A stretch of 64,000 nt of DNA from assembly GCA_036001065.1 (NCBI GenBank), contig DASYUQ010000077.1, positions 12,299 through 76,298 of the forward strand, read 5' to 3'. Below the pieces are notes generated by a model that was given only the letters and a program-made list of their open reading frames with translations, ran no database searches and was not told the origin of the DNA. How positions within the stretch are numbered: the first letter of the stretch is position 1; the number at the start of each line of letters is the position of its first letter. The position numbers were made by a program, and so were the translations under genes. Shown one piece after another: positions 1-15,177 of this stretch. The stretch is from Candidatus Methylomirabilota bacterium. Lineage in GTDB: Bacteria > Methylomirabilota > Methylomirabilia > Rokubacteriales > CSP1-6.

Positions 1-1148
1 GAGCACTGCCAGCACAGGTGGCGCTGCGGGTAGTTCACGGCGCCGCAGTCGGCGCACTTCTGGCCGTAGAGCCGAAGGTTCTGCCGTTCCTCCCGCACCA
101 GCGTCGGGACGCTCGAGAACGAGCGGATGACCTCGGTGTCGACGTGGCGGCGGAATCGCAGGAACTTGCCGTAATGCCCGAGCGCCCGGCCGGCGGCGAG
201 CTGCCCGCCCACGGGCCGCGGGGGGCGGAAGCCAGCGATCGCATCCGTCGCCTCGAAGAGCAACGCCTCCGCCCCGTTGCCGTACGACACCACCAGGATC
301 TGATCGTGAGGCTTCGCCTCCTCCATGACGGAGGCCAGCTCCAGCAGGCAGGAGGCGGCACCCGTGTTGCCGGCCCGCCCGATGACGGGCTCCCCGGGCA
401 CCGCGGCCTCGGGAAACTTCAGCTGGCGGACCAGCGCCGCGTGGGTGCGGGCATCGGGGCCGTAGAGCACGAGCCTGGCGACGTCCTCCCGCTTCCGACC
501 CGTTTTCCGGAGGAGCCCGTCGATGGCCTCGGGGATGTGCTTGTCGAGCCCGTGAGCCTTGATGAACGTCAGATCGGGCAGTGACTGGACGTAGCGCTCG
601 CCATCGTTGCGCCAGAAATCGGTGAACTCGTGGCTGGCCGTGAATGCTCCCTCGAAGGAGGCGATGACGTCGGCGGTCCCGATCAGCGCCGCGCCGGCGC
701 CGTCGCCCACGAGCATCTCCAGCTCGCCGCCGGGCGCGACCGGCCGCATGTCCGCCGCCGCCACCAGCGCCTCGGCCGCCGAGCCCGCCCGCACCGTGTC
801 GAGCGCCAGACGGAGCGCGGTGGTGCCGCAGCGGAGCGATCCCCCGAGATCGGCAGTGAGCACGCCCGCCCCCAGGTCGACGACGCTGGCCAGAAGCGTG
901 GCGCTGGACTTCTCGACGTAGGGCGCGGAGGTCGAGGCGAAGAAGCAGGCGCCGATGCCGGAGACGGCGCGCGCGCCGATGGCGTTGAGGGCCGCCTCGC
1001 AGGCCATGGTAAGGGCGTCCTCGTCGTAGTTGGCCACGGCGCGCCCGCCGCCGCCCCCGCCCCACACCTGCGCGACCGTCTGGCCCGACAGCCGGTAGCG
1101 CGGCACGTAGCCCCCCACGCTCACGAGACCGATCTTCGGATCAGCCAT
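1..1148 (-). CDS. HMG-CoA synthase-family condensing enzyme fused to a C-terminal DUF35 Zn-ribbon/OB-fold domain (5' ATG at 1148, 3' end cut by window start)
   Basis: Minus-strand translation from ATG at 1148 gives MADPKIGLVSVGGYVPRYRLSG...ANYDEDALTMACEAALNAIG...ACFFASTSAPYVEKSSA...LRCGTTALRLA. This matches HMGCS hallmarks (ANxDEDS(I/L)TMA, FATES-like, C-G-(G/T)-T-A-L). The C-terminal part visible before the window edge (YGQKCADCGAVNYPQRHLCWQC) is a DUF35-type C4 Zn ribbon. The gene is not in the ORF track because it runs off the window. It sits 14 bp downstream of the CoA-transferase stop. Confidence 0.6.
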   Translation of the reverse strand, partial: MADPKIGLVSVGGYVPRYRLSGQTVAQVWGGGGGGRAVANYDEDALTMACEAALNAIGARAVSGIGACFFASTSAPYVEKSSATLLASVVDLGAGVLTADLGGSLRCGTTALRLALDTVRAGSAAEALVAAADMRPVAPGGELEMLVGDGAGAALIGTADVIASFEGAFTASHEFTDFWRNDGERYVQSLPDLTFIKAHGLDKHIPEAIDGLLRKTGRKREDVARLVLYGPDARTHAALVRQLKFPEAAVPGEPVIGRAGNTGAASCLLELASVMEEAKPHDQILVVSYGNGAEALLFEATDAIAGFRPPRPVGGQLAAGRALGHYGKFLRFRRHVDTEVIRSFSSVPTLVREERQNLRLYGQKCADCGAVNYPQRHLCWQC

Positions 1149-1162
1149 GGGTGATGTCTCCA

Positions 1163-3040
1163 CTATCCAAGGAAATACCGCCTCGGATCGAAGAGCCGGA
1201 TGAGCCGCAGCTCGTCCGGCGTCGGGGGATCGAAGCGCCGCAGGGCCGGGGCGACCTTCAGCTCCCAGCCGCACGCCTCCCGCGCAGCCCGGACGGCTTC
1301 CGCCTCGGGCGGCCCCGCCAGGACGCCCGTCAGGATCAGCTCGGAGCTCTCGTCGGGCTTCTCGTACACGCCCCGGTCCGACACGACGGTCGTGACGCGC
1401 GTGCCCGGCGCCGTGATGTACGGCGCCTTGTCGACGAAGCGCTCCCGGCTCTGGGCCAGCGTCACGACGACCTCCCGCGCCGACGAGGCGATGTCGTTGG
1501 CTCCGCCCGAGCCCGTGATGTACAGGGTCCCCGGCACGATGGTCGAGTTGATGTTGCCGTGCTTGTCGATCTGCCCCGCCGCCAGCGAGCCGAGGCAGCG
1601 GTTCTCGCTCCCGCCCATGAAGATGCCCATAACGTGGAAGATGTCGGTGAGCATCTTGGACGACGGGAAGTTGCGGAACGAGAAGACGAACGGCTCGGCC
1701 GGGCGCGGCAGATAGCCGACCATCCCCGTCTCGGCCATCAGCTCCACGTCGACGCCGGCGGCCTTCAGCTCGTAGGCGCTGAGCCAGGCGGCCAGGTTCG
1801 AGTTGCCCACGCCGGCCAGGAAGGCGCGATAGCCCCGCGCCCTCACCTTCTCGCCGAGCAGGCGCGCCGCGGCCACCACCATCATCTCCGCTGCGGTGAA
1901 GCCGCCGTCGGCGGGAATGGCGGGCGCGAGCATCTCCAGCTCCCAGACCCAGGCGTCGGTGTGGGCGCGGCCCTTGACCTCCATCAGCCGCTGGTAGCCC
2001 AGCCGGGCGACGTAGGCCCCCTGGTCCGGCACCTCCAGCATCCACTCCTTGATCCAGGCCTCCGCCGTCTCGCGCTTCCGGAAGGCGCGGCGCAGCGTGA
2101 GGATGAAGTCGAGGTCCTCCGCGTATCCCTCCAGCTCGGCGACGTTCATGCCGTACATCCCGGCGGGATGGGCCCCGAACGGCGCCTCCACCACGGCCGC
2201 GACGTACTGTCCCGGCAGTCGCACCAACGGGGCGTGGCGGCGGATGAACTCGGTCGAGACGACCTTCTCGACGCTGACGATGGCGCCCCCGCGGGCGGCC
2301 ATCGCCGCGTAGAAGTTCTCGTTGAGGGGCGCGGCGGCGAGGACGTTGCCGGCGCGGTCGGCGGCCCAGGCGTGAAACAGCGCCACATCCGGCTTGAGCG
2401 AGCGCACGAACCCGACCCTTCGAGCGCCGGCTCCGCCGGCACAACCCTCCGATGGGGAGGTTCGGAGGGGGTCGTGAGGCCCTCTCTGACTAGGGATCTC
2501 GGAGGGGGCCGTAACGTCCGCCCCCTCCGAAAAAAACGGGTCGGGGGCGGCGAGGAAATCGCCATCGCGCGCGTTGTCCTCCTCCATCGAGGAGCCGAGC
2601 AGCGAGCGCGTGGGCATGAAGGGCACGCCCAGCGCGCCCCCGATCAGCCTGAGCGGCATCGTCAGCATCGACCAGTTCTGGACGGCCACCTGGCCGCCGA
2701 GCACGGCGCGGCCGACCAGCGGCTGGGGCGTCGGATAAGGATAGCCCTCGCCGATGAAGGTCGTGACGAGGCGCTCGACGAGGCCGCCCACGACGAACGC
2801 CGTCCAGGGCGAGCCGAACCCGGTCATCGCCAGCGTCCAGCCCGGCCTCCGGCCCCACCACTGGCGGATCACCTCTCGCACCAGCGCGTTCGGGCGGCCG
2901 TGGGCGGCGCCCAGGTAGATGGTCTGGCGCGGCGCGATCAGGCGCCGCACCGCCTCCTCCAGGGTCGTCACCTTGTCCGGCCCTTCGGTGGGCGGCAGCG
3001 CGAGGCGTCGCCCGATCAGCTCCGCGTAGTCCGAGCGCAT
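1163..3040 (-). CDS. Family I CoA-transferase, fused alpha-like + beta-like subunits (GctAB/AtoDA-type), with an about 39-aa in-frame repeat-derived insertion
   Basis: 625-aa ORF. The C-terminal half carries the beta-subunit catalytic-glutamate motif (GGSENRCLGSLAAGQIDKHGNINSTIV). The N-terminal half resembles the alpha subunit. Residues about 168-207 (PFFSEGADVTAPSEIPSQRGPHDPLRTSPSEGCAGGAGARRVG) are encoded by repeat copy A. Confidence 0.65.
   Translation of the reverse strand: MRSDYAELIGRRLALPPTEGPDKVTTLEEAVRRLIAPRQTIYLGAAHGRPNALVREVIRQWWGRRPGWTLAMTGFGSPWTAFVVGGLVERLVTTFIGEGYPYPTPQPLVGRAVLGGQVAVQNWSMLTMPLRLIGGALGVPFMPTRSLLGSSMEEDNARDGDFLAAPDPFFSEGADVTAPSEIPSQRGPHDPLRTSPSEGCAGGAGARRVGFVRSLKPDVALFHAWAADRAGNVLAAAPLNENFYAAMAARGGAIVSVEKVVSTEFIRRHAPLVRLPGQYVAAVVEAPFGAHPAGMYGMNVAELEGYAEDLDFILTLRRAFRKRETAEAWIKEWMLEVPDQGAYVARLGYQRLMEVKGRAHTDAWVWELEMLAPAIPADGGFTAAEMMVVAAARLLGEKVRARGYRAFLAGVGNSNLAAWLSAYELKAAGVDVELMAETGMVGYLPRPAEPFVFSFRNFPSSKMLTDIFHVMGIFMGGSENRCLGSLAAGQIDKHGNINSTIVPGTLYITGSGGANDIASSAREVVVTLAQSRERFVDKAPYITAPGTRVTTVVSDRGVYEKPDESSELILTGVLAGPPEAEAVRAAREACGWELKVAPALRRFDPPTPDELRLIRLFDPRRYFLG
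2420..2537. repeat. GC-rich palindromic repeat element, copy A (forward orientation), inside the CoA-transferase CDS in-frame
   Basis: Sequence: ttcgagcgccggctccgccggc...gatggggaggttcggagggggtcgtgaggccctctctgactagggatctcggagggggccgtaacgtccgccccctccgaaaaaaa. It is near-identical to copy B (32414-32520) and shares 5' and 3' modules with copies C, D, E and F. Internal hairpins: GCCGGCtccGCCGGC and TTCGGAGGGGG...CCCCCTCCGAA. Confidence 0.65.
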
Positions 3041-6797: not shown

Positions 6798-7355
6798 TTA
6801 CATCTCCTTGTGGCACTCCAGGCAGATGGGGACGACGAGCGTCCTGGAGATAAACCGGTTGGTGGCGTCGCTGTCCGTCGTGTGCGTCGTGTGACAGCGC
6901 ACGCAAGCCACCCTCACCGTGTCGTGCTCGCGGATGGCATGGTAGGAGGTGCCTCCCCGGCCTTCGGTCGCCTCCTCGGCCTCGAACTCCGCACCGGGGT
7001 CGACGGCCCGCGCCGGGCTCCCCGCCGCCTCGCCGTCGGCGCGCGACACGCGCAGAATCGGCGTGTGGCACTGGCGGCAGTCGGCGTCGCGCAGCGGCAG
7101 CCGCATGTGCGTCGGCTCCTGATAGGCGCCGGCCAGGAACTTCAGCGTGTCGAACCCCGCCACGGCCCAGACCGTCAAGCGCATCCCGGAATCGGCGCCG
7201 CCGTGACAGGCGATGCACCCGACCGCCGCGTCCTGGCGGTGATGCTGCCCGGCCAGATCGCCAGGCATGGCCGCGGTCAGACCCCCGAACTTCTCATCGT
7301 GCAGGTGGCAGGAGACGCAGAAGCGGTTGTCGCGCTCCTTGGCGGCGAGCGCCAC
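6798..7355 (-). CDS. NapC/NirT/NrfH-family membrane-anchored multiheme cytochrome c (5 CxxCH); likely N-terminal extension to about 7436
   Basis: The ORF from GTG 7355 contains CVSCH, CIACH, CRQCH, CVRCH and CLECH. In-frame upstream codons (no stop back to 7445) encode a TM anchor, IARSFGRSLALWAAGGAGALLLGSLFLVALAAKERDNRFCVSCH. This is the NrfH/NapC arrangement (TM helix, then first heme). The only start-like codon there is ATC at 7436, 8 nt after a GAGAGGAGGA Shine-Dalgarno. Confidence 0.6.
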   Translation of the reverse strand: MALAAKERDNRFCVSCHLHDEKFGGLTAAMPGDLAGQHHRQDAAVGCIACHGGADSGMRLTVWAVAGFDTLKFLAGAYQEPTHMRLPLRDADCRQCHTPILRVSRADGEAAGSPARAVDPGAEFEAEEATEGRGGTSYHAIREHDTVRVACVRCHTTHTTDSDATNRFISRTLVVPICLECHKEM

Positions 7356-7461: not shown

Positions 7462-8268
7462 CTAGCGAACGGTCACCATCACCGGCTTGGCGAACATAAT
7501 GTGCCCCGACGGACCACCGCCACCACCTCGCGGCAGCACCGCGCCGGTCGGCGTCGTCACGGTGCCCACGGACGAGGCCTTCTCGGAGCCGTAGTGGAAG
7601 GCGGCGGTGATCGAGTACGTACCGGGCTCCTGCGGGGCCTTCACGGCCCACACGACCTTGCCCTCGGCCGGCTTCCGGGCGGCCAGATCAGTCTTCTGAT
7701 CGAAGATGACGACGCTATTGAGGTTCTTCTTGAGTCCGGCCGCACGGCTATCCACCCACTTGGTCTGCTCCTGGCCATCGCCGCCCCACGCCTTTGGAGG
7801 ACCGACGATCAGCCAACCGTCGCCCTGGACCGGTCGCGCCTGGAAGCGGAGGTCGGTGTCGACCAGGAACACCCCGACGGCCCCGTGGCCCCCCTTGACC
7901 GTCACCGTGATCTGGGTCTCCTGACCCGGTCGGAGGCTGGTCGGGGCGCTGAGGTTCACCGAGGCGAGCTCGTCCATCAGCTTGACGTCGGCCAGCAGCT
8001 TCTGGCGGTCGGCGGGCTGCATCTGCTGATAGGGGCCCGCGCCATCCTCGATGGCCTTGTAGTGCTTGTTCTCCTTGACCTGGCTGTTGGCGAACGCCTC
8101 CGGCTCGTTCCGTAACTGGTCCTTGGAGACGGACGAGTGGCAGGCGGCACACGTCGGGGCGAGATCGGTAACGTTGCGCAGCGGCCCGCCATTATAGGCG
8201 GCAGCCGGCGGCACGCCGAAGGGAAGCAGCATTGCTGCGAGGCCGAGAACGCTGGCAAATCGTTTCAT
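7462..8268 (-). CDS. Secreted monoheme c-type cytochrome-domain protein
   Basis: True start ATG at 8268 (MKRFASVLGLAAMLLPFGVPPAAAYNGG...) with a GGGGGA RBS. It has a signal peptide, a single CAACH heme motif about 20 aa after the cleavage site, and an about 220-aa C-terminal domain. The upstream 149 aa of track ORF 7462..8715 is an Arg/Ser-rich artefact. Confidence 0.55.
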   Translation of the reverse strand: MKRFASVLGLAAMLLPFGVPPAAAYNGGPLRNVTDLAPTCAACHSSVSKDQLRNEPEAFANSQVKENKHYKAIEDGAGPYQQMQPADRQKLLADVKLMDELASVNLSAPTSLRPGQETQITVTVKGGHGAVGVFLVDTDLRFQARPVQGDGWLIVGPPKAWGGDGQEQTKWVDSRAAGLKKNLNSVVIFDQKTDLAARKPAEGKVVWAVKAPQEPGTYSITAAFHYGSEKASSVGTVTTPTGAVLPRGGGGGPSGHIMFAKPVMVTVR

Positions 8269-8326
8269 CAGGTTTCCCCCGTGACAGCGAAGTGCACTGC
8301 AGTCCAACCCGACACTGATAAACCGA

Positions 8327-8821
8327 TCACCGGTAATGCCGGTTCCCCCGCGACGCCGCGCTCCGGCTGTCCCCCCCCAGGCTCGCCTCCATGACCAGCG
8401 CGTCCTCGCCCGTGTCGTAATAGTAGCCGCGGCGCCGCCCGACGACCCGGAAGCCGAACGACTCGTACAGCGCGCGCGCTTCGGCGTTGCTGGGCCGGAC
8501 CTCCAGGACGACCAGCCGCAGCGCCCGTCCGCGGGCCTCGTCGAGCACCTGACCCAGCAGCGCCCGCCCGATCCCCCGTCGGCGCGCGGACGGGTGCACC
8601 GCGATGTTCGTGATGTGCAACTCGTCCGCGACCTCCCACAGGCAGACGTAGCCGACGAGCCGGCCGTCCTCGCGGATGACGTTGCAGCGCGCCACCCGGT
8701 TCTGCTCCATCTCATAGAGGAAGGCGCCCCGTGACCAGGGCATCGAGAACGAGGCGCGCTCGATGGCGAGCACCTCGTCGAGATCGGCCGGGCTCATCCG
8801 CTCAGTGGACAGTGACGCCAC
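8327..8821 (-). CDS. rimI: Ribosomal-protein-alanine N-acetyltransferase (GNAT)
   Basis: GNAT motifs (ITNIAVHPSARRRGIGRALL) and a conserved tsaB-rimI gene pair. The probable start is ATG at 8797 (MSPADLDEV...). The track start at 8821 is GTG overlapping tsaB. Confidence 0.7.
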   Translation of the reverse strand: MASLSTERMSPADLDEVLAIERASFSMPWSRGAFLYEMEQNRVARCNVIREDGRLVGYVCLWEVADELHITNIAVHPSARRRGIGRALLGQVLDEARGRALRLVVLEVRPSNAEARALYESFGFRVVGRRRGYYYDTGEDALVMEASLGGDSRSAASRGNRHYR

Positions 8822-10231: not shown

Positions 10232-10284
10232 TTCCGGCCTTTCAAGCTGTCCGGCCAAGCCCCGCCTCGTCTGTCACCAGGTCT

Positions 10285-10300
10285 TGGCACCCCTCTTGCG
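10285..10300 (+). promoter_or_regulatory. Sigma-54 (RpoN) -24/-12 promoter
   Basis: TGGCACccctcTTGCG matches TGGCAC-N5-TTGCW exactly. It lies 47 nt upstream of the ATG at 10347. Confidence 0.5.
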
Positions 10301-10346
10301 TAGTCACCGTGAGGCGAAACTTCTGGCATCGCCCGAGAGGTGCCTA

Positions 10347-11099
10347 ATGTATAGGCAGGCAATCCCGCTCCTCGGTCTCGTTCTCTCGCTCGCGGTCACG
10401 AGCCTCGCGGACGCCGAGCCGGTGACGGTCCTGTTTCCGGAGGGCGTGACGCGGGCCTTCCCCATCCTACGCTCCATGGACAACGAAAAGCTCGCCCAGG
10501 GTGACCTCAGCCAGGTCGTGCGGGGTGACAAGGTTTACAGCCGCCTGGTGTTCCGCTTCAAGGACGGTTCGATCTACGACGAGAGCGTCGTCTTCACCCA
10601 GCGCGAAGTATTCACCCTCCTGAGCTACCGCATTGTGCAGAAGGGCCCCTCTTTCCCGGAGACGCTGGAGGCGGCCATCGACCGGGACACCGGACGCTAC
10701 CAGGTCCGCTACCGCGCGGACGAGGACAGCCCCGAAGAGGTCCTCACCGGAAAGTTCGCGCTCCCCGACGACGCCTACAACGGGATGCTCTTCCTGATCG
10801 TGAAGAACCTGCCCGCGCGGGCCGGGGAGACGGTTTCGATAGTGGCGTTCACGCCGAAGCCGCGGGCCGTGAAGATGCAGCTCCTGCCGGTGGCCGAAGA
10901 TCGCATGCTGGTCAGCGACTCGCCGATGCAGGCCACCCGCTATCACATCCGGCCGCAGCTCGGCCTGTTCGCCTCGCTCCTGGTGGCCGACATCCCCGAT
11001 CTCCGCATGTGGATTCTTCCCGGGGAGGCTCCGGCGTTCCTGCGCGCGGAGGGTCCGCTCTACTTCATGGGGCCGGTCTGGAGGATCGACCCCTACTAG
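10347..11099 (+). CDS. Secreted hypothetical protein (signal peptide, no lipobox)
   Basis: Start at the second Met of the track ORF (MYRQAIPLLGLVLSLAVTSLADA|EP). There is no recognisable catalytic motif. The local GC is lower than surrounding DNA. Confidence 0.5.
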   Translation: MYRQAIPLLGLVLSLAVTSLADAEPVTVLFPEGVTRAFPILRSMDNEKLAQGDLSQVVRGDKVYSRLVFRFKDGSIYDESVVFTQREVFTLLSYRIVQKGPSFPETLEAAIDRDTGRYQVRYRADEDSPEEVLTGKFALPDDAYNGMLFLIVKNLPARAGETVSIVAFTPKPRAVKMQLLPVAEDRMLVSDSPMQATRYHIRPQLGLFASLLVADIPDLRMWILPGEAPAFLRAEGPLYFMGPVWRIDPY

Positions 11100-11196
11100 A
11101 TTCCTCGGAGGGGGGCTTCGCCCCCCTTCCGAAACCTCCCCCCAGGATCCATTGCGCGGGCTAAGCCCGCGCTCGAGCCGGCCGCCCCCAGAAACT
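11100..11196. repeat. GC-rich palindromic repeat element, diverged copy F (reverse orientation), between convergent genes
   Basis: cggaggggggcttcgccccccttccgaaacctccccccaggatccattgcgcgggctaagcccgcgctcgag parallels copies D and E (cggagggggcctcggcggccccctccgaggcctcccccagga..gatggcgccggcggagccggcgctcgaa). The terminal hairpin is kept by compensatory changes (GCGCGGGCtaaGCCCGCGC versus GCGCCGGCggaGCCGGCGC). Confidence 0.5.
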
Positions 11197-13017
11197 TCAG
11201 GCGGCTTCCCACAGCCCTTCGGCGACGCCGGCGCTCTTGTAGGCGGCTCGGATGCGATCGAGGTTCTGCGTGAAGAGGAGCCCGATCTTCGCGAACGGCT
11301 CGAAGACAGGACCCTGGCCCTCGATCAGCGGGAAGCTGACATTGGGGAGCTTGCCCCACTGGGCGCGCAGCGCGATGTTCACGGTCGCCAGGCGCGCGTA
11401 GAACTCCTCGCGCTCCTTCGCCGCGCGCTTGACGATCGGCGTGATCAGGCAGTCGATGGTCTGGCGCGCCCGCGCCGCCGCGCCCTCGACGGCCGCCTCC
11501 GCCAGCGGCACCACCGTCACGCCCAGCTCGCCCAGGAACCGCTGCAGGAGCCGACCGACCGATTCCTGGAGCAGCACCTCGGGCAGCCCGACCGTCTTCA
11601 GCTCGCGGTGGCCGATCTGCGCAGCCTCCGCGTACAGCTGGTCGCGCAGCCACTGCACGTAGGCGCGGTTCTCCTCGTCCTTCCACCACTGCTTGATCAT
11701 CTTCTTGCCCCAGTAACGGATGGCCACGTAGTAGAGGTCCCGCTTCCAGAGCTTCTTGGCGATCCCCCGCCAGGAGTAGAACTTGGCCATCGCATCGATC
11801 GCCCCCGTCTGGAGCTCGTAGGGCGACATCCGCCGCGGCTGGTGGACCGTGTGGTGGCCGTCGTAAAAGGACCAGTTCCGGTTGATGACGTACTTGTCGC
11901 CCTTGGCGTAGAGGGTGTCCCAGTCGGGCGAGCCCGGGATCGGCGTGAGGATCATGAACTGCACGGAGTCGATGTCGTGCTTCAGCGCGAAGTCGGCGGT
12001 CGCGTCGATCGTCTCGAGGTCGTCCTCGTCCGAGCCGACCACGAACATGCCGTGGATCCGGATTTGGTGGGCGTGGAAGCGCTCGATCGACCGCTCGATC
12101 TTGGCCAGATCCTGCTTCTTCTGGAAGAGCTTGAGCGTGCGGGGATTGATGGACTCGAACCCCACGTACACATTGAAGCAGTTCGAGTCGCGCATGAGCT
12201 CGAGAAGCTCGGGATCGTCCACCGTCTCGGTGCGCACCTGGGCGCCCCACTGGGGCGTGAGCCCGCGCTCGATCATCCCCCGCAAGAGCTCCTTCACGCG
12301 CTTCTTGTTGGCGGTGAAGATGTCGTCGGCGAAGAAGGTGTAGAGGTTGCCCTTGTGCAGCGTCAGCTCCTCCAGCACCCGCGCGACCGAGTGGGTGCGG
12401 AAGGCGTGACCGTACATCCCCGGCACCGAGCAGAAGGTGCAGGAGAAGGGGCAGCCGCGGGAGGTGGCGATGGAGATGACCCCGCCCGGCTTCCAGCCGG
12501 TGATGAGCTGGTAATCGGGGATCGGGTTCACGTCCAGGTTGGGGATCTTCGGGCGCTCGGGGTTGTGCACGGTCCGGCCGTCCGCCTGGTACGAGAGATT
12601 CTGGATCTTCTCGAACCCCTCGCCCCGCTGGATGGCGTCCACCAGCTCCTGGAAGGCGGCCTCCCCCTCGCCCCGGACGACGAAGTCTCCGTGGGCGAGC
12701 CCTTCGTCGGGCATGAAGCTCGTGTGGGTGCCGCCCAGCACGACGATCCCGCCCGCCTGCCTCACCTGGTCGGCGAGGCGATACGACTGGGGGGCCGTGG
12801 AGGTGATGGCGGAGATGCCCACCAGATCGGCCGCGAGCACCTCCGCCATGTCCACGGGTTGGATGTCCTCGATGTAGACGCGGACGTCGTATCCCTTGCT
12901 CCGCATGATCGTGCCCAAGAGCACGGAGCCGAGCCGCGGAATACACACCCGGGTGTACACGTGGAGGTGCGTGGACTTCGGCTCGACAAACACGAGCTTC
13001 TTGAGCGCTCGCTTCAT
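11197..13017 (-). CDS. Cobalamin (B12)-binding domain radical SAM enzyme (class B) with about 180-aa C-terminal extension
   Basis: Start ATG 13017 (MKRALKKLVFVEP...) with RBS GGGGAG. N-terminal B12-binding fold (DLVGISAITS...IVVLGGTHTSF) and CPFSCTFCSVPG (Cx3Cx2C), then a Trp-rich C-terminal extension reminiscent of DUF4070. Confidence 0.75.
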   Translation of the reverse strand: MKRALKKLVFVEPKSTHLHVYTRVCIPRLGSVLLGTIMRSKGYDVRVYIEDIQPVDMAEVLAADLVGISAITSTAPQSYRLADQVRQAGGIVVLGGTHTSFMPDEGLAHGDFVVRGEGEAAFQELVDAIQRGEGFEKIQNLSYQADGRTVHNPERPKIPNLDVNPIPDYQLITGWKPGGVISIATSRGCPFSCTFCSVPGMYGHAFRTHSVARVLEELTLHKGNLYTFFADDIFTANKKRVKELLRGMIERGLTPQWGAQVRTETVDDPELLELMRDSNCFNVYVGFESINPRTLKLFQKKQDLAKIERSIERFHAHQIRIHGMFVVGSDEDDLETIDATADFALKHDIDSVQFMILTPIPGSPDWDTLYAKGDKYVINRNWSFYDGHHTVHQPRRMSPYELQTGAIDAMAKFYSWRGIAKKLWKRDLYYVAIRYWGKKMIKQWWKDEENRAYVQWLRDQLYAEAAQIGHRELKTVGLPEVLLQESVGRLLQRFLGELGVTVVPLAEAAVEGAAARARQTIDCLITPIVKRAAKEREEFYARLATVNIALRAQWGKLPNVSFPLIEGQGPVFEPFAKIGLLFTQNLDRIRAAYKSAGVAEGLWEAA

Positions 13018-13334
13018 GAGTGGTTTCTCCCCGGTTGAAGAGGCCAGAGAATTTCGCAGATGCGCCAACGCTATCACCCGCCTCCGCGGCTTGTCAACGT
13101 ACGCCTGCCCCCTTCTCCCCTAAATATGGTGTTCACGACCCGTCCGGAACCCCCGTATGTTGGATTTGGGGCTTGACAGGATTTCCGGGCCGGCTCTAGC
13201 ATGCCGGTGACGCGCGTCATGCCGCAAGGGAGGTGAGCCGCGCCCTCGAGGCGACCGGCCCTCTCGGCCTTGCGTTCCGGCAGGGCCGCACCCTCTGATG
13301 ATACTGAGTGGGGCGACCCCCCTCAGACCCTGAG

Positions 13335-13392
13335 GATTCTGGCCTGCAGACTCTCCCCCGCAGATTCTCCCCCCGCGAATTCTGCCCGCAAT
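13335..13392. repeat. Four tandem imperfect 14-15 bp direct repeats (GAYTCT-SSCCC-GCA)
   Basis: GATTCTGGCCTGCA / GACTCTCCCCCGCA / GATTCTCCCCCCGC / GAATTCTGCCCGCA. They lie directly 3' of the nrdR stop and about 320 bp upstream of the radical SAM start. A CCTCAGaccCTGAGG palindrome at 13321-13335 abuts them. Confidence 0.4.
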
Positions 13393-13403
13393 CGACGGTC
13401 GAG

Positions 13404-13916
<513 letters not shown>

Positions 13917-13929
13917 GGGAGCCCTCCCC

Positions 13930-15177
13930 TCACTTCACGCGGTCCGGGTAGAGGGGAAACCGACCGGTCAGCTCCTGCACCTCGGCGCGCACCGCCGCCT
14001 CCACCGCCGAGGAGCCGAGCTGGCTCAACACGCGGTCGGTGAGCTCGGCGATCCGCTCCATCTCGGGCTCCCGCATGCCCCGCGTCGTCAGCGCCGGCGT
14101 CCCCAGCCGGATGCCGCTGGTCACCATGGGGCTGCGGGTATCGAAGGGCACGGTGTTCTTGTTCACGGTGATCCAGGCGCGGTCCAGCGCCTCCTGGGCG
14201 TCTTTGCCCGTGATGTCGCGGCTGGTGAGGTCGACCAGGATGAGATGCGTGTCGGTGCCGCCGCTCACCAGGCGATAGCCGCGAGCCAGCAGCGCGGCGG
14301 CGAGCGCCTTGGCATTGCGGACGATCTGCTGCTGGTAGGCGCGCCACTCCGGCGTGAGGGCCTCCTTGAACGCCACCGCCTTGGCGGCGATCACGTGCAT
14401 GAGCGGACCGCCCTGCACTCCCGGCATCACGACTTTGTCCAGCGTCGCCGCGTCCTTGGCCTGGCACAGGATCATGCCGCCCCGAGGGCCGCGCAGGGTC
14501 TTGTGGGTGGTGGTGGTGACGAAGTCGGCGAGGCCGACCGGCGACGGATGCAGCCCCGCCGCGACCAACCCGGCCGGATGGGCGATGTCGGCCATCAGGA
14601 CGGCACCGACTTCGCGCGCGATCTCTGCGAAGGGGCGGAAGTCGATGGCGCGTGGAAAGGCCGAGCCCCCGGCGATGATCAGCTTGGGGTGATGCTGCCG
14701 GGCCAGGTCGCGCACCTGGTCGAGGTCGATCCGCTCGGTGTCCTTGCGGACGCCGTAGGGCACGATCTTGTAGAGCTTCCCCGAGTAGTTCACGGGGCTC
14801 CCGGCCGTCAGGTGGCCGCCGTGCGAGAGGTTGGGCCCCAGGACCGTGTCGCCGGGTTTGAGGACAGCGAAGTAGACGGCCATGTTGGCCTGGGCGCCCG
14901 AGTGAGGCTGGACGTTGGCGTGCTCGGCACCGAACAGCTCCCGGGCGCGGGCGATCGCCAGGTCCTCGGCGATATCGACCACCTCGCAGCCCCCGTAGTA
15001 CCGGCGCCCCGGATAGCCCTCGGCGTACTTGTTGGTCATGACCGAACCGAGCGCCTCCAGCACCGCCTCGGAGACGAAGTTCTCGGAGGCGATCAGCTCG
15101 AGGTTCCGGTTCTGCCGCTGCGCTTCCTCGCGCAGCGTCTTGGCGATGTCGGGGTCGACGTCAGTGAGCCGGGGCAT
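13930..15177 (-). CDS. glyA: Serine hydroxymethyltransferase
   Basis: 415 aa, with the PLP-Lys motif [15 protein letters not shown] and [26 protein letters not shown]. Confidence 0.9.

Follow-up and report, generated by a model that had tools for sequence, protein, structure and literature searches.

A conserved, stand-alone class-B radical SAM gene downstream of nrdR in Rokubacteria and the putative relic of a poly-lysine micro-ORF unit in its upstream region

Class-B radical S-adenosylmethionine (SAM) enzymes fall into more than 100 sequence groups, most of which are uncharacterized, and the BchE/P-methylase similarity cluster also contains HpnJ, PhpK, and the ladderane-cluster enzymes (PMC12931638). 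AprD4 and some other proteins with a B12-binding domain do not bind cobalamin (PMC12931638). Here we describe a gene of this class on a stretch of 64,000 nucleotides from a Candidatus Methylomirabilota bacterium of the Rokubacteriales (assembly GCA_036001065.1, contig DASYUQ010000077.1, positions 12,299 to 76,298), referred to below as the window. Positions 11197-13017 of its minus strand, stop codon included, encode a radical SAM protein of 606 amino acids (aa), according to the open reading frame (ORF) list and Pfam, and the gene lies directly downstream of nrdR. We favor, with a probability of roughly 0.6, the view that this protein belongs to an uncharacterized, phylogenetically broad, housekeeping-like subfamily of class-B radical SAM proteins and that the region upstream of its gene is not a dedicated leader.

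The nearest solved structure is that of MgmA, or QCMT, the methyl-coenzyme M reductase glutamine C-methyltransferase (PDB 9ccb), which matches residues 28-368 by sequence (E value of 2e-17) and is also found by fold (Foldseek E value of 1e-13). The two proteins share the B12-binding domain, the radical SAM core, and a single CxxxCxxC cluster. However, they are about 20% identical, MgmA (~420-450 aa) has neither the helical linker nor the DUF2229-like domain of the window protein, and MgmA is an archaeal enzyme whose substrate, methyl-coenzyme M reductase, is absent here. Foldseek searches with an AlphaFold model of the window protein returned MgmA, TsrM, CysS, OxsB, and AprD4 at E values of 1e-13 to 1e-11, the first four also matching the modeled fold of the B12-binding domain; AprD4 was found by the sequence-to-structure search as well. 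In the literature we found no paper that ties Rokubacteria radical SAM proteins of this type, or the combination of DUF2229 with radical SAM, to a function.

Distribution and conservation point to a housekeeping role. A genome scan with one genome per species gave 80 loci, and the gene order thiI-glyA-nrdR-radical SAM-<PRT-tsaB-rimI is maintained at L001-L078, that is, in about 78 Rokubacteria species. Median amino acid identity, taken for each gene over the 53-77 Rokubacteria loci that match it along nearly its full length, is 82% for the radical SAM protein, compared with 84.5% for glyA, 84% for PRT, 79.5% for nrdR, 76% for thiI, 74% for rimI, and 70% for tsaB. The gene is under strong purifying selection and about as conserved as glyA, which encodes serine hydroxymethyltransferase; this is notable for an orphan enzyme. 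A protein identical to that of the window (P0001) is present in public metagenome-assembled genomes (NCBI and JGI records), where it is annotated as "radical SAM protein [Methylomirabilota]." When 1.8 billion cluster representatives were searched exhaustively with HMMER, 3,726 matched at an E value of <1e-30. The closest homologs outside Rokubacteria are from NC10 (65% identity), followed by proteins of ~620 aa that are 42-49% identical, of which the named ones belong to Nitrospinota and Fidelibacterota; many of the homologs found in this way measure 450-500 aa and lack the C-terminal domain. One candidate distant homolog, P0223, was rejected; it is a copy from Rokubacteria that carries a frameshift and lies in the same gene order.

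About 25 genomic contexts of distant homologs were inspected, and the neighboring housekeeping genes changed from one to the next (in NC10, Lon, RNase J, and a cold-shock protein; in other phyla, UvrA, UvrB, RecG, trigger factor, HisRS/AspRS, MltG, DXS, and MerR regulators), with no neighborhood beyond such genes recurring among them. Neither the window nor ~100 related loci held pathway partner genes. The description of the gene as stand-alone, made previously from the letters of the window alone (the sequence-only reading), thus extends across phyla, and its relatives are not consistently embedded in a known pathway cluster. Its single syntenic position in ~78 Rokubacteria species, its glyA-like conservation, its own sigma-70-type promoter with a short leader, and its stand-alone placement among core genes in every phylum sampled suggest constitutive housekeeping behavior of the gene rather than membership in a biosynthetic cluster. 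Because of this behavior, the substrate is most likely a standing component of the cell.

One such component could be the translation machinery, with the enzyme acting as a C-methylase of tRNA, rRNA, or a ribosomal protein. The Rokubacteria neighborhood is rich in tRNA modification genes (thiI, tsaB, rimI, and tsaC/Sua5), other homologs lie near SpoU, HisRS, AspRS, and trigger factor, and such strong conservation is what enzymes acting on macromolecules typically show. However, the neighbors differ between phyla, no RNA-binding domain was detected in the protein, and we know of no class-B radical SAM enzyme that acts on RNA; we consider this explanation rather improbable.

No NCBIfam model reached its cutoff with the window protein. 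The best-scoring model was that of BchE, the anaerobic Mg-protoporphyrin IX monomethyl ester cyclase (TIGR02026), with 148.4 bits over residues 27-428 against an equivalog cutoff of 481. It was followed by HpnJ (TIGR03471; 139.7 bits against 578), PhpK (137 against 600), ApyD (NF050148; 130 against 750), the ladderane-cluster lipid B12-dependent radical SAM protein (TIGR04072; 116.9 against 360), MgmA (TIGR04014; 113 against 360), the hopanoid C-3 methylase HpnR (TIGR04367; 90.6 against 650), and the B12-dependent radical SAM C-methyltransferase of ribosomally synthesized and posttranslationally modified peptides (RiPPs) (TIGR03975; 63.7 against 282). BchE has the same domain order as the window protein but differs in its C-terminal domain, which is DUF2229-like here, and in the photosynthesis context that is missing here, and its score is less than a third of the cutoff. 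On these grounds the protein appears to be a bona fide class-B (B12-binding) radical SAM protein outside every named family, probably within the BchE/P-methylase megacluster. The sequence-only reading had called the substrate unclear, and, in agreement with it, no curated HpnR, HpnJ, BchE, PhpK, or RiPP methylase model claims the protein.

The rank of BchE could indicate that the enzyme makes a BchE-like or other radical change on a porphyrinoid or corrinoid. Genomic context gives this idea two further points, namely, a SirC/Met8-type precorrin-2 dehydrogenase/siroheme synthase gene between nrdR and the radical SAM gene at L044 and L061 and a URO-D family gene next to homolog P0265. However, the SirC adjacency was seen in only 2 of 80 species, ~100 loci contained no bch, ahb, or cob genes nearby, the BchE score is below a third of its cutoff, and Rokubacteria are not, to our knowledge, phototrophs, so that modification of a tetrapyrrole or cofactor is unlikely. 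At the two loci concerned (L044:1049-1720 and L061:1632-2276, both plus strand), the SirC/Met8-type gene lies on the same strand as the radical SAM gene and 51-72 bp upstream of it, suggesting cotranscription. Hopanoids, which the sequence-only reading had named as a candidate substrate, have lost ground. The HpnJ and HpnR scores (140 and 91 bits) and the 3-methylhopanoids that NC10 bacteria make would fit an HpnP/HpnR-type C-methylase or an HpnJ; nevertheless, both scores are far under the cutoffs, no locus contained shc or hpn genes, and true HpnR/HpnP orthologs would pass their equivalog models. This makes hopanoid modification highly improbable.

The longest ORF reading of the gene ends at the same stop (11197, minus strand) and starts at a GTG at 13077, which would give 626 aa. 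We consider the ATG at 13015-13017 to be the true start, giving the 606-aa protein, because the homologs are 605-609 aa long and align from residue 1 with an MKRALKK-like N terminus, because a Shine-Dalgarno sequence (GGGGAGAA) lies at 13025-13032, and because a conserved promoter is situated between GTG and ATG, with its −10 element (13068-13073) downstream of the GTG. Pfam finds a B12-binding (Rossmann-like) domain at residues 25-126 (12640-12945; PF02310, 63.4 bits against a cutoff of 32.1) and the radical SAM core at residues 185-343 (11989-12465; PF04055, 64.4 bits), which bears out the class-B identity that the sequence-only reading had proposed for the 606-aa protein; no further Pfam family matched at an E value of ≤0.01. 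The CxxxCxxC motif (C189/C193/C196, encoded at 12430-12453) is invariant in 73 orthologs. Only three other cysteines are present (C25, C280, and C523), so an auxiliary Fe-S cluster is not expected.

The C-terminal part of the protein had been described as a Trp-rich extension. The enrichment is real (8 of the 12 Trp residues lie within residues 382-603 and 6 within 416-456), but the extension is more than Trp rich, as it consists of a helical linker and an alpha/beta domain. In an AlphaFold model of residues 396-606 (mean predicted local distance difference test [pLDDT] score of 77), four helices make up the linker at residues 399-468 (11614-11823, minus strand), with 6 Trp, 7 Tyr, and 13 Lys plus Arg in its 70 residues, and are followed at about residues 475-600 by a four-stranded beta/alpha domain, which we delimit at residues 470-603 (11209-11610, minus strand). 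This domain appears to be a divergent DUF2229. Homolog P0243 (787 aa) carries a full DUF2229 (PF09989) at residues 475-678, with 41.2 bits against a gathering score of 29.4, and two further homologs score weakly for the same family. A hidden Markov model of the Rokubacteria C-terminal domain alone matches the DUF2229 region of P0243 (E value of 3e-13) and every ~620-aa homolog from other phyla, and hhalign aligns the conserved GLLFTQN motif. The assignment is transitive, through P0243, because the window protein itself gives no direct DUF2229 match. A word-indexed search with the C terminus (residues 388-606) as an independent, widespread domain found only fragments of the same family. Pfam "Apolipoprotein" matches in 10 of 43 fragments (best E value of 1e-4) were weak and probably compositional, and a membrane-interface amphipathic helix within the Trp-rich linker was rejected because a hydrophobic-moment scan does not single the linker out.

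DUF2229 is a domain of PlsA/Ger, which converts glycerolipid esters to ethers (PMC13159169). PlsA/Ger (plasmalogen synthase, glycerol ester reductase), which acts in the formation of bacterial ether lipids, is an ATP-driven HGD/BCR-type protein and not a radical SAM enzyme, and it carries BcrAD_BadFG and HGD-D domains, whereas the window protein has only a truncated, cysteine-poor DUF2229-like domain. Therefore, only a binding or scaffolding role could be shared between the two. The subfamily is unusual in combining such a domain, otherwise found in ether-lipid enzymes, with glyA-level conservation in an abundant soil phylum and with a complete absence from biosynthetic clusters.

By analogy with characterized class-B enzymes, the [4Fe-4S] cluster would reductively cleave SAM to a 5'-deoxyadenosyl radical. 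As elsewhere in the superfamily, this radical would take a hydrogen from an unactivated carbon, to which methylcobalamin, recharged by a second SAM, would then hand over a methyl group. It is also possible that the enzyme carries out a nonmethylating radical reaction of the BchE, HpnJ, or OxsB type or that, like AprD4, it does not bind cobalamin at all. As for the substrate, our preferred guess, which is a tentative one, is the acyl chain of a membrane glycerolipid. This guess is based on the DUF2229-like domain and on occasional fatty acid gene neighbors, which together are a weak lead toward a lipid. The gene for P0243 (L091:1901-8064) is followed on the same strand by genes for a ketoacyl synthase, an ACC carboxyltransferase, and a PlsC-type acyltransferase; no other operon of the family was seen to be so clearly of a lipid type. 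The homolog at L107 is followed by AccA, and the Nitrospinota gene is preceded by genes for an acyl-CoA dehydrogenase, MaoC, and a CoA-transferase. An enzyme of this kind could put methyl branches on unactivated carbons of glycerolipid acyl chains without an olefin intermediate. The mid-chain methyl fatty acids typical of NC10 are one candidate product; another is the extra methyl groups of soil branched tetraethers, for which we know of no methylases. If a membrane lipid is the substrate, then the family would provide a genetic marker for methyl-branched lipids that are used as environmental proxies. If it is not, the gene would still stand for a B12-requiring core function that is overlooked by present annotation of Rokubacteria and NC10.

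Several points weigh against the interpretation favored here. The chemistry is deduced from the superfamily only; the full-length AlphaFold model reaches a pLDDT score of 66, which is moderate confidence only; and both promoters described below are consensus matches backed by conservation. In the window protein itself Pfam found no direct DUF2229 match (0 families at E values up to 5), and only 4 of 43 family fragments matched DUF2229, at E values of ~0.02. The lipid lead in particular is weakened by the presence of fatty acid genes in only 2 or 3 of the ~25 sampled contexts, by the fact that AccA is itself a housekeeping gene, by the lack of a defined function for DUF2229, and by the linker helices, which are not unusually amphipathic in the hydrophobic-moment scan.

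The intergenic gap between nrdR and the radical SAM gene spans 13018-13403 (386 bp), with the nrdR stop codon at 13404-13406. The sequence-only reading had singled out this region as unusually long and as a sign of regulated expression. Its length in the window holds, but among 72 species the gap ranges from 33 to 2,477 bp, so the gene does not have a long upstream region as a conserved trait. The features within the region were resolved by alignment of similarly sized gaps, with coordinates computed by script. The Shine-Dalgarno sequence of the radical SAM gene (13025-13032, minus strand) has a GGAGA core that is invariant in an eight-species alignment. Upstream of it is a sigma-70-type promoter (13068-13097, minus strand) with a −35 element TTGACA at 13092-13097, an 18-nucleotide (nt) spacer, and a −10 element TAGCGT at 13068-13073. 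In the aligned sequences TAGCGT is invariant and TTGACA is present in seven of eight, while the flanks vary. A minus-strand TTGACA had been pointed out before, and it is indeed a conserved −35 element; it starts 80 nt upstream of the ATG. A simple promoter scan did not list this promoter because TAGCGT deviates from TATAAT. Transcription of the radical SAM gene probably starts from it. The predicted 5' leader (13018-13062, minus strand) can form a small hairpin (−8 kcal/mol) in which the Shine-Dalgarno GGGGAG pairs with an upstream CUCUGG; it is probably insignificant, since the leader sequence is not conserved among relatives.

The upstream neighbor, nrdR (13404-13916, minus strand; 170 aa, zinc ribbon and ATP-cone, PF22811 and PF03477), with glyA beyond it, had been raised as a possible functional link, and the enzyme could be controlled by NrdR or linked to nucleotide metabolism and coregulated with ribonucleotide reduction. 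At least 70 Rokubacteria species have the radical SAM gene directly downstream of nrdR and on its strand, and in some of them the gap is only 33-100 bp, so that cotranscription is possible. A conserved inverted-repeat box at 13117-13132 (family consensus CCCCAnATnTGGGG, here CCCCTAAATATGGTGT on the plus strand) agrees with the consensus of the NrdR box in 12 of its 16 positions in our own comparison. However, this box is single and not tandem, and it is in register with the promoter of the opposite strand, to which its spacing is fixed, and not with the radical SAM promoter, to which its spacing varies. No match to the tandem 16-bp NrdR box (consensus acaCwAtATaTwgtgt) with up to three mismatches was found in the 64 kb. 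The radical SAM gene has its own conserved promoter, and the adjacency to nrdR is lost in NC10, Nitrospinota, and other phyla. Control by NrdR is therefore extremely improbable. Rfam scans gave no indication of a riboswitch or known RNA, either at gathering thresholds (whole window and three related loci) or by E value (noise only, with E values of ≥3, in 10900-14100).

About half of the upstream region is covered by an opposite-strand unit of promoter, Shine-Dalgarno sequence, and terminator hairpin that was missed by the sequence-only reading. The plus-strand promoter, TTGACA-N18-TAGCAT at 13173-13202, was the only match of the promoter scan; it fits at 10 of 12 positions, where chance would give 0.1 such matches. 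TTGACA-N17/18-TAGCAT is present in 28 of 72 related loci. Just upstream of its −35 element, a block that is fairly A/T rich by the standards of this genome (CCCCCGTATGTTGGATTT, 13150-13167, plus strand) is conserved both in the alignment of similarly sized gaps and in the loci that bear an EamA transporter gene; it is possibly an UP element or activator site. Downstream of the promoter, alignments show an orphan Shine-Dalgarno sequence (GGGAGGTGA, 13228-13236) within an element (GGGAGGTGAGCC) that extends to 13239 (plus strand). In relatives, a Shine-Dalgarno sequence (GGAGGTGA) at this point is followed by an ORF of 10-13 codons, MAKKKA[A/T]KKKKK, that is usually initiated by GTG. This micro-ORF is present in 40 of 80 loci, all among L001-L074 (e.g., near position 7735 in L010, 7773 in L018, and 7701 in L072), and only at this position, 215-265 bp from the radical SAM start on the opposite strand. 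Its codons include 291 AAG and 26 AAA in total, and changes between species are mostly synonymous, AAG/AAA and within GCN. A small hairpin and then a strong GC hairpin follow it in relatives, and in 15 species the gene for an EamA/DMT-family transporter comes directly after the hairpin. In the window the micro-ORF has been removed by a clean ~40-bp deletion at 13239/13240, which is shared by the independent assemblies L081 and L082 of the same lineage, and the transporter is also absent. The conserved GC-rich hairpin (CGGCCCTCTCGGCC...CCGGCAGGGCCG, 13256-13288), an inverted repeat of −22 kcal/mol, is retained; each of its base pairs is kept in 36-40 of 40 sequences, with little covariation. 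We interpret the promoter, Shine-Dalgarno sequence, and hairpin of the window (13173-13288) as the relic of a poly-lysine micro-ORF unit. The hairpin would be the terminator or attenuator of that unit and possibly also stops transcription from nrdR; a simple intrinsic-terminator scan of 10900-14100 found none, and the hairpins lack U-tracts.

The statement that no substrate-peptide ORF accompanies the gene holds for the window, but about 40 relatives carry the micro-ORF. It is conceivable that the radical SAM enzyme is a RiPP-type maturase that C-methylates the divergently encoded peptide (MAKKKAAKKKKK), which the EamA protein would export. In 40 of 80 species the micro-ORF keeps its 215-265-bp distance, also when more than 1 kb separates it from nrdR, a transporter gene follows it in 15 species, and B12-dependent radical SAM enzymes do methylate peptides, with the ApyD and RiPP C-methyltransferase models matching weakly. 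Nevertheless, the enzyme is intact in the window lineage (three assemblies) from which the micro-ORF has been cleanly deleted. The micro-ORF is also missing from at least 15 species with nrdR-radical SAM gaps of 33-175 bp and from the surroundings of the homologs in NC10, Nitrospinota, and elsewhere. The peptide has no leader/core organization, no protease or RiPP recognition element domain is present, and the models score 64-130 bits against cutoffs of 282-750. Peptide modification, a candidate of the sequence-only reading, finds no precursor ORF in the window, and since the micro-ORF is dispensable, we regard the maturase explanation as very unlikely. At L018 the EamA start codon is 12 nt beyond the hairpin, which places the micro-ORF on the transporter transcript as a leader, and the micro-ORF looks like a leader of the EamA transporter rather than a RiPP precursor.

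As such, the unit is a candidate lysine-codon leader peptide or attenuator. In the leader-peptide attenuators of his, trp, and thr genes, a promoter and a Shine-Dalgarno sequence are likewise followed by a short ORF rich in the codons of one amino acid, a GC hairpin, and then the gene; here, lysine accounts for 8 or 9 of the 10-13 codons in relatives, and the downstream gene is that of the EamA transporter. A leader with Lys codons also precedes the lysine cluster of Thermus thermophilus. Unlike known attenuators, the unit shows no convincing alternative antiterminator pairing, about 25 species keep it without the transporter, and the ORF is deleted in the window; the transporter of L066 is a pseudogene. 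An attenuator with alternative pairing in the micro-ORF leader was rejected, as the minimum free energy was no better than that of shuffled sequences (z of −0.17), and RNAalifold recovered only the terminator hairpin in this leader, with little covariation. A bolder proposal is doubtful, namely, that the fusion of B12-binding radical SAM and DUF2229 represents a widespread housekeeping family of enzymes that tailor membrane lipids in Rokubacteria, NC10, Nitrospinota, and further phyla, most of them uncultured. A smaller addition to it is that the poly-lysine micro-ORF with its terminator may be a new lysine-sensing leader-peptide attenuator of an EamA-family transporter.

The repeats of the upstream region lie next to the nrdR stop codon. 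Four tandem 14-bp repeats had been reported there. Tandem Repeats Finder gives a 14-bp unit (GATTCTCCCCCGCA) in 2.8 copies at 13335-13373, with a score of 50, just at the reporting limit; a second, 15-bp period overlaps it at 13355-13387. By eye, about four degenerate units of 14-15 bp span 13335-13390. The array, though weak, is genuine. As a dispersed motif the unit has two matches in the window, a number reached in 27 of 100 shuffles and thus not above chance, and it was not found in the rest of the window or in 173 other loci. Besides the window lineage, only the closest relative, L001, has the array, with different unit boundaries. A palindrome had also been noted; two overlapping ones, at 13304-13326 (CTGAGTGGGGCGACCCCCCTCAG) and 13321-13335 (CCTCAGACCCTGAGG), just 3' of the array, cover 13304-13335 and lie slightly outside the span of 13321-13392 given earlier for repeats and palindrome. 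They are shared only with L001, L081, and L082. Since the repeats and palindromes lie close to the nrdR stop and about 240 bp upstream of the radical SAM promoter, they are unlikely to regulate the radical SAM gene. The 386-bp region thus appears not to be a dedicated regulatory leader but to combine a compact promoter, the relic of a lost unit, and lineage-specific repeats, with neither a riboswitch nor an NrdR box, and the regulated expression once suggested for it finds no support. For genome scanning, the lesson is that a long, repeat-bearing upstream region can be the evolutionary debris of a lost neighboring unit and is not evidence of elaborate regulation.

A few neighboring genes deserve mention. 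At L101:2573-3310 and L102:6286-7008 (both plus strand), genes for ~240-aa MerR-family regulators overlap the start codons of homologs of ~475 aa that lack the C-terminal domain, which might represent a pairing with a light- or B12-responsive regulator of the CarH type. The gap between nrdR and the radical SAM gene at L050 contains a 571-aa ORF (456-2171, plus strand) that, by eye, resembles formate-tetrahydrofolate ligase and would suit the one-carbon theme of the neighboring glyA. In the window, a convergent 271-aa ORF at 10284-11099 (plus strand) with a signal-peptide-like N terminus and no Pfam or NCBIfam match is much less conserved than its neighbors: roughly one in three syntenic loci has it, and its median identity is 64%. 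Downstream of rimI lie a multiheme cytochrome c-like ORF with CxxCH motifs and an adjacent ORF without a Pfam match (6798-7355 and 7462-8715, both minus strand); the same genes occur at L081:14750-16220. Beyond them, MeaB and a CCG/Fer4 oxidoreductase indicate that further B12-dependent metabolism is encoded nearby.

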